Source of the DNA: Escherichia coli | GTDB lineage: Bacteria > Pseudomonadota > Gammaproteobacteria > Enterobacterales > Enterobacteriaceae | Reading direction: 5' to 3' (one strand) | DNA length: 64,000 nucleotides | NCBI RefSeq assembly: GCF_017348835.2 | Contig: NZ_CP071375.1 | Part shown: in pieces, positions 6,768 to 44,165 of the stretch | Layout: each line of letters opens with the position of its first letter | How positions within the stretch are numbered: the stretch's first letter is position 1 | Notes under the pieces: model-generated | Database searches by the model: none | Told to the model about the DNA's origin: nothing | The model's input: the letters and a program-made list of their open reading frames with translations, nothing else | Made by a program: the position numbers and the translations under genes

Positions 6768-6978
6768 GCCTGATGCGCTACGCTCATCAAGCCTACAAAA
6801 TCTATTGCAACATGTTGAATCTTCGTGCGTTTGTAGGCCGGATAAGGCGTTCACGCCGCATCCGGCATTAGGTGCTCAATGCCTGATGCGCTACGCTTAT
6901 CAGGCCTACAAAATCTATTGCAACATGTTGAATCTTCATGCGTTTGTAGGCGGATAAGGCGTTTTCGCCACATCAGGT
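6768..6978. repeat. REP/BIME cluster (tandem repetitive extragenic palindromes)
   Basis: Two near-identical ~100-bp units containing gcctgatgcgctacgct and ggataaggcgtt...gccgcatccggc motifs typical of E. coli REP elements; coordinates approximate. Confidence 0.7.
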
Positions 6979-23387: not shown

Positions 23388-24274
23388 TGCCACTGCTGGA
23401 TAAGCTGCGTGAGCAGTACGGGGTCGGACCGGTATGCAGCGAACTGCATATTGCCCCGTCAACGTATTACCATTGTCAGCAACAGCGACATCATCCGGAT
23501 AAACGCAGTGCCCGTGCGCAGCACGATGACTGGCTGAAGAAAGAGATACAGCGCGTATACGATGAAAATCACCAGGTATACGGTGTGCGTAAAGTCTGGC
23601 GTCAGTTGTTACGGGAAGGTATCAGAGTGGCCAGATGCACTGTGGCACGTCTCATGGCAGTTATGGGACTTGCCGGTGTTCTCCGGGGTAAAAAGGTCCG
23701 CACTACCGTCAGCCGGAAAGCCGTTGCCGCATGCGACCGCGTAAACCGTCAGTTCGTGGCAGAACGTCCAGACCAGTTGTGGGTGGCTGATTTTACCTGG
23801 GTAAGCACATGGCAGGGCTTCGTTTATGTGGCGTTCATCATTGATGTGTTCGCCGGATACATCGTGGGATGGCAGGTCTCATCATCCATGGAAACAACAT
23901 TCGTGCTGGATGCACTGGAGCAGGCGTTGTGGGCCCGTCGGCCGTCCGGCACAATCCATCACAGTGATAAAGGTTCTCAGTATGTATCGCTGGCCTACAC
24001 GCAGCGGCTTAAGGAAGCCGGATTACTGGCATCAACAGGGAGTACTGGCGACTCGTATGACAACGCGATGGCTGAGAGCATCAATGGTCTTTACAAAGCG
24101 GAGGTAATACACCGTAAGAGCTGGAAAAACCGGACAGAAGTGGAACTGGCCACACTAACGTGGGTGGACTGGTATAACAATCGACGATTGCTGGAAAGGC
24201 TGGGCCATATTCCTCCGGCAGAAGCAGAAAAAGCTTATTATGCTTCCATCGGAAATAATGATCTGGCAGCCTGA
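23387..24274 (+). CDS. IS3-family transposase OrfB (DDE catalytic domain; normally expressed as OrfAB fusion by -1 frameshift)
   Basis: 295-aa ORF overlapping OrfA stop in -1 frame; DDE-type integrase-core features (…HSDKGSQYVS…); A-rich run ggaaaaaataatg at the overlap. Confidence 0.85.
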   Translation: MPLLDKLREQYGVGPVCSELHIAPSTYYHCQQQRHHPDKRSARAQHDDWLKKEIQRVYDENHQVYGVRKVWRQLLREGIRVARCTVARLMAVMGLAGVLRGKKVRTTVSRKAVAACDRVNRQFVAERPDQLWVADFTWVSTWQGFVYVAFIIDVFAGYIVGWQVSSSMETTFVLDALEQALWARRPSGTIHHSDKGSQYVSLAYTQRLKEAGLLASTGSTGDSYDNAMAESINGLYKAEVIHRKSWKNRTEVELATLTWVDWYNNRRLLERLGHIPPAEAEKAYYASIGNNDLAA

Positions 24275-26858: not shown

Positions 26859-28175
26859 TCACCTTCTGCCAAACAGATTGACAACATTATTGCCTGTTTG
26901 CTGTTGATAGTTATTAACCCGGTCCTCCCAGATCTCAAGTGCTCTGCGTTTTTCTGGCAAATAATCGTATCGATCATAATGTTTTGAACTGACATCGTTC
27001 AACGCATGATTTTGAATACGATCGCGGATTTCCTTACTGATCCCAGCTTCTCCCATTAACGTTTTACAGGTCCGACGTAAGTCACGTGCTGTAAAAATTT
27101 TAAAGTCAGGATTAAAAGCCCGGAAATACATGATAGCGCGAGCCAGACTGTCCGTACGAACCGGACGCTTACCATTAGTCGAAAGTGGAAAAATGTAAGG
27201 GCTGGATTTTTCTTTTGTTAACTCCTGCACACAGGATAATTCCTGTAATGCTGATTCAGTCAACGGTATCAAATGCTCTCGTTTATTTTTAGAGACATCA
27301 GCAGTCACCAGCAGCGTTTTTTGTTGAAAATCAACATCACACCACTGACTGGCGATCATTTCGAAGGGACGTTGCCCTCCGGTATAGATACAGAATCGGA
27401 TCAAATGTTGCATCAATAATCCAACGTTGGTTGCTTCAGCAAAATGTTCCATTAGAAAACGCAACTCTTCAAGTGTCAGCCAGGTATCACCGACTTTTTC
27501 AGCAGATGACTGTTTCGGTATCACTGACACCGGATTTGCCTCCAGCCCAAAAGTAATCCCTGCACTTGTGTTCATCGGATCGTTATCTGCTTTCAGTCCA
27601 TAGTTAAATGCAGCCATCAGGTAAGAACGGATCCGGTTAGAGTGAACCACAGCACCACGCTGAATGATCCCGGCCAGGATATGTTTAATCTGTCCGGAAG
27701 TCACATCTTTAGCTTTAGTTTCACGGGGGATCACTGTATAGCATTCATTTTCAAGGCGTTTCAGAACATCCTGCCATGTCCTCTTATTATCAATTTTCAT
27801 TTTGTTAACATAACCATGAATCAATGCTTCAAATGAGCCCTGTGATTGATGGAGTTGTATCCGCTGCTGTTCTGCAAACTGTTGTCGTTCCAGTTCTGCC
27901 TGGGGATCCTTTCCTTCAATGAGCCAGGCACCATACTTTTTTGCCAGTTCATTCGCTGTGGCCAGTTTCATCTCAGGCCATATACCCAATTGAATGAATC
28001 TTTCTTTTTTCCCTTTTTCCACGTAATAGCGGAAATAGAAAATCTTGCTGCCAGAAGACTGAACTTTGACACCAAGTCGTCCAGTGCCACGTTGAGAGCT
28101 GTTGCTCCAGACATAGAACGATGTCTTTTTTGCTTTCAATGCTCGGATGGCTGTTTCAGTAAGATTGACGGCCAT
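26859..28175 (-). CDS. int: site-specific tyrosine recombinase, P4-type integrase (N-terminal arm-binding DUF4102-like domain)
   Basis: 438-aa ORF; N-terminus LTETAIRALKAKKTSFYVWSN...YFRYYVEKGKKERFIQLGIWPEMKLATANE matches the P4/CP4-57 integrase pattern; C-terminal R...HxxR...Y-type catalytic region (ARDLRRTCKT, HALNDVSSKHYDRYDY); Shine-Dalgarno aagagg upstream; adjacent to tRNA fragment. Confidence 0.85.
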   Translation of the reverse strand: MAVNLTETAIRALKAKKTSFYVWSNSSQRGTGRLGVKVQSSGSKIFYFRYYVEKGKKERFIQLGIWPEMKLATANELAKKYGAWLIEGKDPQAELERQQFAEQQRIQLHQSQGSFEALIHGYVNKMKIDNKRTWQDVLKRLENECYTVIPRETKAKDVTSGQIKHILAGIIQRGAVVHSNRIRSYLMAAFNYGLKADNDPMNTSAGITFGLEANPVSVIPKQSSAEKVGDTWLTLEELRFLMEHFAEATNVGLLMQHLIRFCIYTGGQRPFEMIASQWCDVDFQQKTLLVTADVSKNKREHLIPLTESALQELSCVQELTKEKSSPYIFPLSTNGKRPVRTDSLARAIMYFRAFNPDFKIFTARDLRRTCKTLMGEAGISKEIRDRIQNHALNDVSSKHYDRYDYLPEKRRALEIWEDRVNNYQQQTGNNVVNLFGRR

Positions 28176-28371
28176 AGAACCTCTTTTCTAAACCAGTAAC
28201 AATCAGAATAACTCGTGATTTTGGGTCAGGTAATGGGTCAGGTAACGATCGTACAATGAAGAAAAAACGGAACCAAGCGGAGACAGAGAAAATTACATAA
28301 TTCATTGATTATAAACAACTAATAAAGCAATCGCGAACAAACAAAAACAATATAGAACGAACTTGCCTCAT

Positions 28372-28418
28372 GACTCATAATCGCTTGGTCGCTGGTTCAA
28401 GTCCAGCAGGGGCCACCA
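28372..28418 (+). tRNA. ileX: tRNA-Ile2 (ileX, anticodon CAU/LAU) 3'-terminal 47-nt fragment; island attachment-site repeat, not a complete tRNA gene
   Basis: GACTCATAATCGCTTGGTCGCTGGTTCAAGTCCAGCAGGGGCCACCA matches the anticodon loop through CCA end of ileX as I recall it; the sequence 5' of it cannot pair with the acceptor 3' strand (no GGCCCCT), so the D-arm and 5' acceptor are absent. Confidence 0.7.
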
Positions 28419-28427
28419 GATACAGTA

Positions 28428-28461
28428 AAGGCTGACGAGAAATCGTCAGCCTTTTTCTTTT
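28428..28461. terminator. Rho-independent terminator (native ileX terminator, also downstream of yqjH)
   Basis: aaaggctgacga gaaa tcgtcagccttt hairpin followed by tttcttttc. Confidence 0.6.
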
Positions 28462-28471
28462 CATATATCAG

Positions 28472-29236
28472 TTACTTCGCGTGCCAGTAAGCCGCTGCAC
28501 GTACCTGTTGAGGGTCATACTGTTCCGCTTCAAAGCGACGGCTTAAATTCTTCACCACCTTCCCTTCGCCGGTTATCCAGATGAAGTAATCATCGGCAGG
28601 GATTTGCATCTGCGCCAGACGCGCATCTACCGCCTGCTCATCATGTGCCAGCCATTCGATATTAAAACCATCAAGGTGCGCGAGATAATCCTGACAGGCG
28701 TTATCCCGCACGCTAACCAGCGCGCTAACTTGCGGTTTAACGGCAAGTTTGCTCAACGTTTCCAGGCGGCGGCGCAGTGCGGGCATTCCGGATTCATCGC
28801 AGACATACAGCTGATACGCGTAATCTTCCGGCACCACCAGCGAACCGCGCGGACCTGCCACCGTGAGTTTATCGCCCGGTTGGGCCTGCATTGCCCAGCT
28901 ACTGGCGACGCCGTCTTCGTGAATAAAGAAATCAATCGCCAGTTCATGGCGTAGTTCGTCATACAACGGCGTATAGTCACGCGACGGTGGGCGTGGTCCT
29001 TCCGGCCAGACGATGCCCTCTTCCGTTACCGTTGGCGGCACAAAGTGAGCGTCAGGTTGAGGAAAGAAGAGTTTGCTGTGATCGTCAAAGCCGCGCGATG
29101 TAAAACCGTCCAGCGCCTCGCCGCCAAGGACAATGCGCTGAAAACCGGCGCTGATACGCTCAACGCGTAGCACAGTCAGTTCACGGAACCGCAGATCATT
29201 GCGAACGCGCTGCGGGTAGCGGGGGGTGTTATTCAT
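28472..29236 (-). CDS. yqjH: siderophore-interacting / NADPH-dependent ferric-chelate reductase
   Basis: 254-aa ORF; recognised as YqjH (NfeF); FAD-binding siderophore-interacting family. Confidence 0.85.
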   Translation of the reverse strand: MNNTPRYPQRVRNDLRFRELTVLRVERISAGFQRIVLGGEALDGFTSRGFDDHSKLFFPQPDAHFVPPTVTEEGIVWPEGPRPPSRDYTPLYDELRHELAIDFFIHEDGVASSWAMQAQPGDKLTVAGPRGSLVVPEDYAYQLYVCDESGMPALRRRLETLSKLAVKPQVSALVSVRDNACQDYLAHLDGFNIEWLAHDEQAVDARLAQMQIPADDYFIWITGEGKVVKNLSRRFEAEQYDPQQVRAAAYWHAK

Positions 29237-29258
29237 TGTTATCGCCTTCGTGATGGTA

Positions 29259-29274
29259 ATCAGATATATCTAAA
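29259..29274. promoter_or_regulatory. AGATATATCT palindrome, candidate YqjI (NfeR) operator, yqjH-proximal copy
   Basis: Perfect 10-bp palindrome at 29262..29271; a second copy lies at 29492..29501 near yqjI; PadR-type YqjI is known to repress both genes (established), assignment of these exact sites is inference. Confidence 0.4.
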
Positions 29275-29284
29275 TAAAACTCGC

Positions 29285-29315
29285 AAATGATAATGATTGT
29301 TAATCATGATAAATG
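29285..29315. promoter_or_regulatory. Fur box-like sequence in yqjH promoter
   Basis: aaatgataatgattgttaatcatgataaatg closely resembles GATAATGATAATCATTATC consensus; yqjH is Fur-regulated (established). Confidence 0.5.
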
Positions 29316-29349
29316 CAAGCGATTTGTAGAACTGATATGTCTATAGTCT

Positions 29350-29430
29350 GATAAGACGAACCGCCTCTTCTCAGGCATCATTACTCAACGCCGGATGCGG
29401 CGTGAACGCCTTATCCGGCCTACGTGTGAG
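29350..29430. repeat. REP element
   Basis: gccggatgcggcgtgaacgccttatccggcctac motif; approximate coordinates. Confidence 0.6.
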
Positions 29431-29473
29431 ATGAGTCCACGTTTAAAAATCATTTTTACACTTGCAAGAGCTC

Positions 29474-29506
29474 TCATATCAGATATAAATTAGATATATC
29501 TAATTA
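29474..29506. promoter_or_regulatory. AGATAT-repeat palindromes, candidate YqjI autoregulatory operator
   Basis: tcatatcagatataaattagatatatctaatta: repeated AGATAT half-sites just upstream of the yqjI Shine-Dalgarno. Confidence 0.4.
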
Positions 29507-29523
29507 AGCAAAAGGAGGCTGAT

Positions 29524-30147
29524 ATGAGCCATCATCACGAAGGGTGTTGTAAACATGAAGGCCAGCCACGCCATGAGGGCTGCTGCAAAGGTGAGAAGTC
29601 AGAACACGAGCACTGCGGACACGGTCACCAGCATGAACACGGTCAATGCTGCGGTGGTCGCCACGGTCGCGGCGGCGGTCGTCGACAACGTTTCTTTGGT
29701 CACGGTGAATTGCGTCTGGTGATTCTGGATATTCTCTCGCGCGATGACAGCCACGGTTACGAATTGATTAAAGCGATTGAGAATCTAACCCAAGGGAATT
29801 ACACCCCAAGCCCGGGCGTCATCTACCCGACGCTGGATTTTCTGCAGGAGCAGTCGCTGATTACCATCCGCGAAGAGGAAGGTGGTAAGAAGCAGATTGC
29901 GCTGACCGAACAAGGCGCGCAGTGGCTGGAAGAAAACCGCGAACAGGTGGAGATGATTGAAGAACGCATCAAAGCGCGTTGCGTTGGCGCTGCGCTGCGC
30001 CAGAACCCGCAAATGAAGCGGGCGCTGGATAATTTTAAAGCGGTGCTGGATTTACGCGTCAACCAGAGTGATATCACTGATGCACAAATAAAAAAGATCA
30101 TTGCGGTGATCGACCGCGCCGCTTTTGATATTACGCAACTGGATTAA
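29524..30147 (+). CDS. yqjI: PadR-family metal-responsive transcriptional repressor with His/Cys-rich N-terminal tail
   Basis: 207-aa ORF; N-terminus MSHHHEGCCKHEGQPRHEGCCKGEKSEHEHCGHGHQHEHGQCCGG; recognised as YqjI (NfeR). Confidence 0.85.
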   Translation: MSHHHEGCCKHEGQPRHEGCCKGEKSEHEHCGHGHQHEHGQCCGGRHGRGGGRRQRFFGHGELRLVILDILSRDDSHGYELIKAIENLTQGNYTPSPGVIYPTLDFLQEQSLITIREEEGGKKQIALTEQGAQWLEENREQVEMIEERIKARCVGAALRQNPQMKRALDNFKAVLDLRVNQSDITDAQIKKIIAVIDRAAFDITQLD

Positions 30148-30149
30148 TC

Positions 30150-30250
30150 ACCGATTGCCGGATGCGGCGTACCCTACACACCCCGTAGGCCTGATAAGAT
30201 GCGCCAGCATCGCATCAGGCATTGTGCTCCAACCGCCGGATCCGGCATAC
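30150..30250. repeat. REP elements
   Basis: gccggatgcggcgtaccc...taggcctgataagatgcgccagcatcgcatcaggc motifs; approximate coordinates. Confidence 0.6.
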
Positions 30251-30253
30251 CGA

Positions 30254-31774
30254 TTAATGCAGCACCGTCACCGCGTCTTCCAGTCGGCTGGCGCGGTGTT
30301 TCACCATCGCCGACACCTGCGCACTCTCTTCCACCAGCTCAGCATTTTTCTGGGTGATGAGGTTAAGCTCATCCACTGCACGGGTCAGGCTGGAAAGACC
30401 ATCGGCCTGTTCCAGCGTTGAATGGCTAATCTGGGCAATCAACTGGGTGACGTTTTTCACCTGTGCCACAATATCTTCCATCGTACGTCCGGCGGCGTGT
30501 ACCTGCTGCGAACCGGATTGCACCTTATCAGCACTGGCATCAATCAGCTTGCGAATATCGTTGGCAGCATTGGCGCTGCGGCTGGCTAAATGACGCACTT
30601 CCCCCGCCACCACTGCAAAACCTTTGCCCTGTTCGCCGGCTCGCGCCGCTTCCACCGCCGCATTCAGGGCCAGAATATTGGTCTGAAACGCAATATCGTT
30701 AATCAGCGAAGTAATGGTGCCAATGCGCTGGGTACTGTCGGCGATATCGTCCATAGTCTTGATCACCGTGGTCATCGCCTCCCCGCCCTGCACTGCCGCA
30801 TTACTGGCAGTGATTGACAGTTTATCGGCAGCCGACGCCGTGGCAGAGTTCTGTTTCACCGACGCCGCCATTTGGTTCATGGTCGCCACCGTTTGCTGAA
30901 CGTTATCAACTGTCTGCTGGGTATGTTCGTTCAGTTCATCGGTGCCTTTCGCTAGCGTCTCACTGCCATTTCTGACACTGGACACCTGGCTTGAGACATC
31001 GTTAATTAGCCAACGGCACATCAGGCCAAGCTGCCCTACCGCGCGTAATGTCAGCCCCAGCTCATCGCTGCGATTCAGATGCTCAACACTATTACGCTCT
31101 CCGGTCGCCACCTTCAGCGCCTGACGGGCGACATTTTCTATCGGGCGGACAATCTGCCATTCAAAACAGGCGCTTGCCAACAATACCACTAACGCACAGA
31201 GGATATACGTCACCACCGGGGCAGCAACAAACCAAAGCATGGCCGCCAGCAAGATAAACATCAGGGTCATCACTCCACGCGCCCGCCAGCGAAGCGGTAA
31301 TGAAGGCAGTTTACCCAGCCAGCCTTTACGCACCACCAGGCCTTTATGAATACGCTTACCGGTACGTCCGGCGTTCAGCGCTTTGTACAGCGGCTCCACC
31401 GCCGCGATCTCTTCATCCGTCGCCCGGGTACGAATCGACATATAACCACTGATTTTTCCCTCGCGCACCATCGGTACCGCATTGGCCCGCCCCCAATAAT
31501 GGTCACCATTTTTGCGGCGATTTTTCACGATGCCGCTCCAGGGCTCCCCTTTTTTCAGGGTGAACCACATATCCGCAAACGCCGCTTTTGGCATATCCGG
31601 GTGACGCACCATATTGTGCGGCTGCCCCTGTAACTCTTGCAAGGTATAGCCGCTCACCTGCACAAAAGTGTCATTAGCATGAGTGATATAGCTTTGCAGA
31701 TCGGTAGTGGACATCAGAGTGGTATCGTCCGCCAGCGGGGTATTTTGCTGGGTGACATACGGATGAGAAGACAT
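30254..31774 (-). CDS. aer: aerotaxis receptor (PAS-FAD sensor, methyl-accepting chemotaxis signalling domain)
   Basis: 506-aa ORF; N-terminal PAS region and C-terminal MCP signalling domain; recognised as Aer. Confidence 0.9.

Positions 31775-43939: not shown

Positions 43940-44165
<226 letters not shown>

Follow-up and report, generated by a model that had tools for sequence, protein, structure and literature searches.

The nfeF-nfeR locus and its surroundings

The window, that is, the whole 64-kb stretch of Escherichia coli DNA that was analysed, contains the regulator gene nfeR and, divergently oriented to it, nfeF. The chromosomes of E. coli PE164 and F2_81 matched the region 28400-30300 with 100% identity and are annotated there with nfeF, nfeR and aer, and the RefSeq product name of the regulator is 'DNA-binding transcriptional regulator NfeR'. 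The preliminary description of this DNA had called the gene YqjI, and this name was right, because the identical DNA in RefSeq is nfeR, formerly yqjI. The features of the locus and the predicted parts of the regulator are as follows.

28472-29236, minus strand: nfeF (yqjH), the divergent target gene, encoding an NADPH-dependent ferric-chelate reductase (Pfam; RefSeq nfeF)
29257-29277, no strand assigned: nfeF-proximal operator-like palindrome TAATCAGATATATCTAAATAA (repeat analysis; kept at the equivalent place in loci L011 and L009)
29283-29313, no strand assigned: Fur-box-like AT-rich element GCAAATGATAATGATTGTTAATCATGATAAA (14 of 19 Fur consensus positions)
29478-29507, no strand assigned: operator-like site ATCAGATATAAATTAGATATATCTAATTAA on the nfeR side, made up of one half-site and one full palindrome (repeat families D1, D2, I1, I7 and I10)
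29512-29518, plus strand: Shine-Dalgarno motif AAGGAGG, 5 nt upstream of the ATG (read from the sequence)
29524-30147, plus strand: nfeR (yqjI) coding sequence, 207 aa plus stop codon (ORF list; 100% DNA identity to the annotated nfeR of E. coli PE164)
29524-29676, plus strand: predicted disordered low-complexity tail, aa 1-51, with a Gly/Arg run at its end and CC at aa 8-9, 20-21 and 42-43 (composition; pLDDT below 50)
29677-29703, plus strand: conserved junction, aa 52-60 (G-RRQRFFGH), leading from the tail to the first PadR helix (orthologue conservation)
29704-29934, plus strand: predicted PadR winged helix-turn-helix DNA-binding domain, aa 61-137 (PF03551, AlphaFold2, Foldseek)
29938-30135, plus strand: predicted C-terminal helical domain, aa 139-204 (AlphaFold2, Foldseek)

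The nfeF product contained the domains FAD_binding_9 (E = 1.5e-37) and SIP (E = 1.2e-25), as in siderophore-interacting ferric reductases. The intergenic region between nfeF and nfeR has a length of 287 bp. The palindrome core AGATATATCT occurred in two copies in the 64 kb, both of them within this intergenic region, and the composite site ATCAGATATAAATTAGATATATCTAATTAA is situated just upstream of the nfeR ribosome-binding site. Binding of NfeR to intergenic sites is indicated by the title of Wang 2014, as cited in PMC7981267, and the AGATATATCT-type palindromes are operator-like and thus candidate NfeR operators. The title of Wang 2011 states that yqjH is under Fur control. The Fur-box-like element at 29283-29313, one of only four matches with at least 14 of 19 positions within the window, might represent the respective Fur site.

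The same intergenic layout was found together with a divergent SIP gene at a Lelliottia locus (L011) and at the locus of a 54%-identical orthologue (L009). At both loci, one palindrome lies beside an GATAATGAT-type element close to the reductase gene, and the ribosome-binding site of the regulator gene is preceded by a double site; the AATGATAATGATTGCTA part of the Fur-box-like element is also conserved at both. The window additionally contains a REP-like imperfect palindrome or hairpin at 29390-29419 (GCCGGATGCGGCGT / ACGCCTTATCCGGC). It lies centrally in the regulatory region, flanked by the two operator-like sites, and is not present in the intergenic regions of Lelliottia or L009. Further REP-like sequence follows nfeR at about 30157-30245. 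A scan of 29200-30300 for sigma-70 promoters did not reveal any site.

Within E. coli, the gene is nearly universal. A 281-nt query spanning the tail region was covered to at least 80% in 5422 of 5426 complete genomes, with an identity of at least 90% in all matching records and of at least 99% in 4227 of them. A K-12 (C600) derivative has the same residues 1-58, and T185S is the sole difference over the full length of the protein; therefore, experiments with K-12 YqjI can be transferred directly. [quoted passage not shown] In E. coli UTME-3 (L005, NZ_CP168984.1, 697-1954), which belongs to the 5426 genomes, only a 5′-truncated pseudogene is left of nfeR. The remnant starts directly after a truncated integrase and an IS3 element, and the entire His/Cys-rich tail, the operators and nfeF are gone, so this strain represents a natural loss of the system.

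In comparison with K-12, the left-hand neighbourhood is rearranged in the window, whereas the nfeF-nfeR unit is untouched. At 28365-28455, the tRNA-Ile2 gene ileX is represented by a 3′ fragment (...CTCATAATCGCTTGGTCGCTGGTTCAAGTCCAGCAGGGGCCACCA), and its terminator hairpin comes next. The fragment is unique in the window, and ARAGORN detected no intact tRNA within the 64 kb. It seems to be a displaced att-site remnant from the integration of an island into ileX. The segment 21208-28175 contains a tyrosine integrase gene (26859-28175, minus strand), two hypothetical genes, an IS3-family transposase gene with an ALIL frameshift pseudoknot (23342-23458) and a truncated thymidylate-kinase pseudogene. 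Through this segment, pitB, gss, yghU and the hyb operon are directly linked with the ileX fragment and nfeF. In K-12, the nfeF side and the pitB-hyb side are roughly 70 kb apart, and the direct joining thus indicates that the PE164-like background was rearranged, with the junction in the island remnant and the IS3 element. Rfam matches at the gathering score were obtained for naRNA4, a REP-derived nucleoid-associated RNA (6836-6906, 17879-17955 and 43998-44079), and for the ES173 sRNA (992-1055); these matches are unrelated to the NfeR tail.

Composition, start codon and predicted structure of the tail

The N-terminal sequence of NfeR, as obtained by translation of 29524-30144 on the plus strand, is MSHHHEGCCKHEGQPRHEGCCKGEKSEHEHCGHGHQHEHGQCCGGRHGRGGGRRQRFFGHGELRL. 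Its first 45 residues include 18 His and Cys residues, in comparison with a background frequency of 4.3%, taken over the window's 59 long ORFs. By the binomial distribution, this count has a probability of about 1.6e-13 per stretch of 45 aa and still of about 3e-9 after multiplication by all such stretches. The next highest value for any long ORF was 10, reached by a 4Fe-4S protein and by a hypothetical ORF on the reverse strand. Residues 1-58 consist of 13 Gly, 12 His, 7 Glu, 7 Cys, 6 Arg, 4 Gln, 3 Lys, 2 Ser, 2 Phe, 1 Met and 1 Pro, and the other 149 residues of the protein contain just 2 His and 1 Cys.

The preliminary description had claimed about 45 residues of almost pure His, Cys, Glu and Gly at 29524-29700. 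The coordinates were correct and correspond to codons 1-59, and the enrichment was borne out. However, 'almost pure' was a mild overstatement, because Lys, Gln, Arg, Ser and Pro also occur in the tail and the four residues account for 34 of 45 positions (76%). All of the motifs that had been quoted were found in the translation, namely HHH (aa 3), CC (aa 8, 20 and 42), HEH (aa 28 and 37), CGHGH (aa 31) and CCGG (aa 42); Cys residues 42 and 43 are thus present in the NfeR of the window. In addition, HEGCCK occurs twice, at aa 5-10 and 17-22. The two copies differ in their codons and therefore do not stem from a recent duplication in E. coli, and Tandem Repeats Finder detected no repeats at the DNA level in 29400-29800. 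Neither Pfam nor NCBIfam yielded a match on aa 1-60. In summary, the tail consists of three parts: about 45 residues rich in His, Cys, Glu and Gly, a short Gly/Arg run, and the conserved junction RRQRFFGH (aa 53-60).

A low-complexity N-terminus is sometimes the product of a mis-called start, and in this case the tail would be an annotation artefact, with the real initiation further downstream. However, the ATG at 29524 is the sole in-frame ATG, GTG or TTG between the upstream stop codon (29491) and codon 63, and codon 63 already falls within the first PadR helix. A mis-called start was rejected on the basis of this single available start codon and the AAGGAGG motif in front of it. The preliminary description had regarded absence of the tail from orthologues as a sign of a mis-called start, but the tail was found in 111 of 111 full-length close orthologues. 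The lengths of these tails differ by whole codons, and the reading frame is therefore kept. Furthermore, three other E. coli alleles differed from the window within codons 1-58 at four synonymous sites and only one non-synonymous site (H3Y). Aberrant NfeR database entries with MKA... starts in another frame (P0005, P0062, P0063 and P0123) could be cited in favor of a different start, but they turned out to be frameshifted hybrids. Taken together, the tail is translated and the start at 29524 is secure, and the probability of a mis-called start is practically nil.

Several 'NfeR' database entries (P0005, P0062, P0063, P0123, P0126, P0128 and P0234) begin in the MKA... frame and then switch to the NfeR frame; they are probably due to frameshift sequencing errors in GC-rich low-complexity DNA. 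Two ORFs in other frames overlap with the tail, at 29555-29722 (plus strand) and 29599-29754 (minus strand). They were rejected as genes, since they are by-products of the composition and match frameshifted database entries only.

The preliminary description had placed the tail N-terminal to a PadR fold. The Pfam match to PadR begins at aa 67 and the solved PadR structures match from aa 61, and therefore the tail precedes the fold. The domain PF03551 covered aa 67-136 with 56.6 bits, at a cut-off of 27 (E = 2.5e-15). An AlphaFold2 model of NfeR was built from 66 homologues. Its pLDDT was below 50 at aa 1-51 and rose across aa 52-60 (76 in the block aa 51-60); for the following parts, means of 10-residue blocks are given. 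The winged-helix part was modelled with helices at aa 62-73, 78-88 and 97-109 and a wing at aa 113-127 (pLDDT 94-98 for aa 61-140), and the C-terminal part with helices at aa 139-160, 162-179 and 186-204 (pLDDT 86-98 for aa 131-207). According to the model, aa 1-51 are thus predicted to be disordered, and aa 62-204 are confidently predicted to form a PadR fold with a helical domain.

The best Foldseek matches of the model were PadR and LmrR structures with a probability of 1.00, and the two-domain PadR structures of B. subtilis PadR (5X11) and Rv0047c (8JXK) aligned over 150-170 columns. In analogy to the two-domain PadR proteins, the C-terminal helical domain might serve for dimerisation. A search of the PDB sequences did not yield a solved NfeR structure; the nearest entries were PadR proteins, aligned from aa 61.

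Variation of the tail and conservation of the junction

Two sets of homologues were compared. The close set comprised 111 full-length orthologues from Escherichia, Citrobacter, Salmonella, Phytobacter, Lelliottia, Leclercia and others, and tails were measured up to the equivalent of G61. The distant set comprised 127 cluster representatives at 50% identity, so that both sets together contained 238 full-length proteins.

All 111 close orthologues have an N-terminal extension, but its length varied from 17 to 98 aa and its number of Cys residues from 0 to 10. A His content of at least 15% was found in 107 of the 111 tails, at least two Cys residues in 79, and a CC pair in 51. The tails of Citrobacter are lengthened by HEGCCKGEGHxHEG-like units. 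Where E. coli has GQCCGG with C42-C43, Citrobacter has a single Cys (HEHGCGHRHG), and the pair is missing at this position in Citrobacter as well as in Salmonella. Outside Escherichia, the position of the C42-C43 pair is not conserved. The tails of Lelliottia and Leclercia do not contain any Cys. Nevertheless, the single Lelliottia locus that was examined, L011, has kept nfeF as its partner together with the operator-like sites. Cys-free tails thus occur beside the same nfeF and operators, and therefore the cysteine-dependent step cannot be general to the family.

In contrast to the tail, the junction is conserved. Of the 111 close orthologues, 108 have RRQRFFGH and the remaining three RRPRFFGH, and R56 and F58 were conserved to at least 90% (alignment A1).

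The extension persists also in the 127 distant representatives, with a median length of 59 aa. It is mainly Gly/Arg-rich; 25 extensions are His-rich and seven contain CC. The distant extensions end in R-x-G-R-[LMF]-F-[DE]-[HQ]. A gene for an SIP-type reductase was not found beside the distant homologues at the Morganella locus L006 and at the metagenome loci L007, L008 and L010. Among the loci examined, the partnership with nfeF is limited to the closer, enterobacterial-type orthologues. Within the single species Morganella psychrotolerans, the homologues P0213, P0287, P0289 and P0291 differ in size (227, 245, 263 and 281 aa), because their tails contain about one to four copies of an 18-aa His-rich unit, HGCHGDHHEHGEHHGRGE. 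The respective genes are not adjacent to an SIP reductase gene.

As far as the compared sequences go, the His/Cys-rich tail of E. coli seems to have been elaborated in its own lineage from a disordered arm that is shared by the family. A more far-reaching view would be that E. coli shows just one state of a module that is built from repeats and evolves fast, with the Arg-rich junction R-x-G-R-[LMF]-F as the sole constant element; we regard this view as tentative and rather unlikely. If tail length and Cys content tune the metal selectivity or the set-point in each lineage, the mechanism involving C42 and C43 would be the solution of the E. coli lineage, and the general allosteric element would be the junction arm. 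In any case, the tail is far more variable between genera than the description 'conserved cysteine' suggests, and the junction was conserved in the 238 sampled proteins.

Probable nickel sensing, alternative readings and known systems

The metal-dependent derepression that had been mentioned in the preliminary description is the published mechanism of NfeR (PMC7981267), and the metal is nickel. The preliminary description had neither named the metal nor mentioned that the tail has been the subject of experiments. NfeR represses nfeF, and excess nickel relieves the repression (PMC7981267, citing Wang 2011 and Wang 2014). In Klebsiella pneumoniae, deletion of nfeR increased the expression of nfeF 85-fold, and the nickel sensitivity of the deletion mutant was unchanged (PMC7981267). 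In nickel-stressed E. coli, nfeR was up-regulated (PMC9508795). Our results are in congruence with this literature: the stretch very probably is the N-terminal metal-sensing tail of NfeR (YqjI), a nickel-responsive PadR-family repressor. The Cys/His-rich extension had reportedly been noted by Wang, Wu and Outten in 2011 (J Bacteriol 193:563) and likened to the nickel-binding C-terminus of SlyD. Blahut and coworkers are said to have characterized nickel binding by NfeR in 2018 (J Inorg Biochem 184:123) with XAS, ITC and mutagenesis and to have found a plastic binding region; reportedly, C42 and C43 were needed for the nickel response in vivo and were dispensable for nickel binding in vitro. The same study is said to have proposed a vicinal disulfide between C42 and C43 as well as allosteric communication between the domains, and to have renamed the genes nfeR and nfeF. 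The His/Cys-rich tail is thus already known as the nickel-sensing N-terminal region of NfeR/YqjI, its proposed nickel-binding domain.

The proposed mechanism is as follows. Metal-free (apo) NfeR would bind to the AGATATATCT-type palindromes and repress nfeF and nfeR. When cytoplasmic Ni(II) increases, the predicted disordered His/Cys-rich tail (aa 1-51) would bind nickel, and binding might be relayed via the Arg-rich junction (aa 52-60) to the winged-helix domain. The affinity for DNA would decrease, and nfeF, encoding the ferric reductase, as well as nfeR would be derepressed. From its conservation, the junction seems to be the obvious candidate for the coupling of the tail to the DNA-binding domain. 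Four points count against this explanation: the unchanged nickel sensitivity of the Klebsiella mutant, the non-conservation of C42-C43, the Cys-free tails, and the lack of a composition-corrected similarity of the tail to known nickel-binding proteins.

Two other functions of the tail have to be weighed against nickel sensing. The tail might be a broad-spectrum binder or buffer of metals (Zn, Co, Cu, Fe and Ni) or a reservoir resembling the His-rich segments of SlyD, HypB and Hpn, rather than a nickel-specific sensor, and the specificity in vivo would then result from metal availability. The plasticity of the tails in sequence, length and Cys number is more in keeping with a non-stereospecific binder that has multiple sites than with a defined site, the order of residues is closer to that of the SlyD tail than in shuffled versions, and the nickel site was reportedly described as plastic in Blahut 2018. 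However, the literature gives a regulatory output, namely derepression by nickel (PMC7981267, PMC9508795), and a transcription factor of low copy number would be a poor metal buffer. A metal buffer or multi-metal sensor accounts for the regulatory output less well than a nickel sensor, and we consider this alternative unlikely.

Still less probable, and in our view quite improbable, is that the vicinal Cys pairs form a thiol-disulfide redox switch, so that NfeR would sense oxidative stress or the redox state would gate metal sensing. The tail does contain three CC pairs (aa 8-9, 20-21 and 42-43), the target gene encodes a flavin reductase tied to iron and redox homeostasis, and a C42-C43 vicinal disulfide was reportedly proposed in Blahut 2018. 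On the other hand, 60 of the 111 close orthologues have no CC pair, and the literature examined did not yield any evidence for redox regulation. The existence of Cys-free orthologues also weakens the case for a redox switch, because some of them keep the gene partner and the operator-like sites. Nickel sensing by the tail is therefore retained as the preferred function.

The finding itself has little weight, since it rediscovers what has been published on a named E. coli regulator, which connects nickel stress with iron acquisition. The comparative results are mildly new; they concern the tail, which varies through repeats, the C42/C43 pair, which is not kept outside Escherichia, and the junction motif, which is conserved. 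The combination of a variable tail and a constant junction could guide work on the control of a PadR domain by a disordered metal-binding tail.

Among known proteins, the tail recalls the C-terminal tail of SlyD (residues about 146-196; 2KFW), which has a similar composition (His, Gly, Cys and Glu/Asp) and shares the 4-mers GHGH, CCGG, HEHG and EGCC with NfeR. The SlyD query sequence was verified against PDB entry 2KFW and was identical over residues 1-196. An unfiltered Smith-Waterman comparison of the NfeR tail with SlyD 145-196 gave a score of 102. Shuffled tails scored 63.6 ± 10, and 102 was reached by only 0.15% of them. The observed score is thus above 99.85% of the shuffles, and therefore the order of residues resembles SlyD beyond composition alone. 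BLASTP yielded no alignment of the tail with the SlyD C-terminus, and phmmer with the tail alone yielded no match up to E = 10 in the PDB sequences, which include full-length SlyD (2KFW). These composition-corrected searches thus revealed no significant similarity to known nickel-binding proteins. At the level of sequence, the two tails appear to resemble each other in residue order, which is not proof of common descent.

The fold of NfeR connects it to other proteins. The winged helix-turn-helix is common to NfeR and the solved PadR structures (B. subtilis PadR 5X11, LmrR, Rv3488 and Brachyspira PadR 9QBC), and like the PadR proteins of subfamily 1, NfeR has an additional C-terminal helical domain. 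The solved PadR proteins match NfeR from about their residue 10 and are therefore devoid of a long N-terminal extension. The effectors of these proteins are mostly small organic molecules, which are bound between the domains or at the dimer interface, and the structure of Rv3488 was solved in complex with a ligand. In contrast to those proteins, NfeR has an appended disordered, putatively metal-binding tail instead.

Low-complexity clusters of His, and sometimes Cys, bind Ni(II) at the N-terminus of HypB, the C-terminus of UreE, a loop of RcnA, and in Hpn. These are chaperones, transporters or storage proteins, whereas NfeR is a repressor. The tail of SlyD is unstructured, and that of NfeR is predicted to be disordered. 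However, the SlyD tail is attached to the C-terminus of an FKBP chaperone and functions in the delivery or storage of nickel for hydrogenase maturation, not in transcription control. The dedicated nickel regulators of E. coli, NikR and RcnR, have structured sites, unlike the NfeR tail. Such a tail on a repressor is unusual, but it has already been described.
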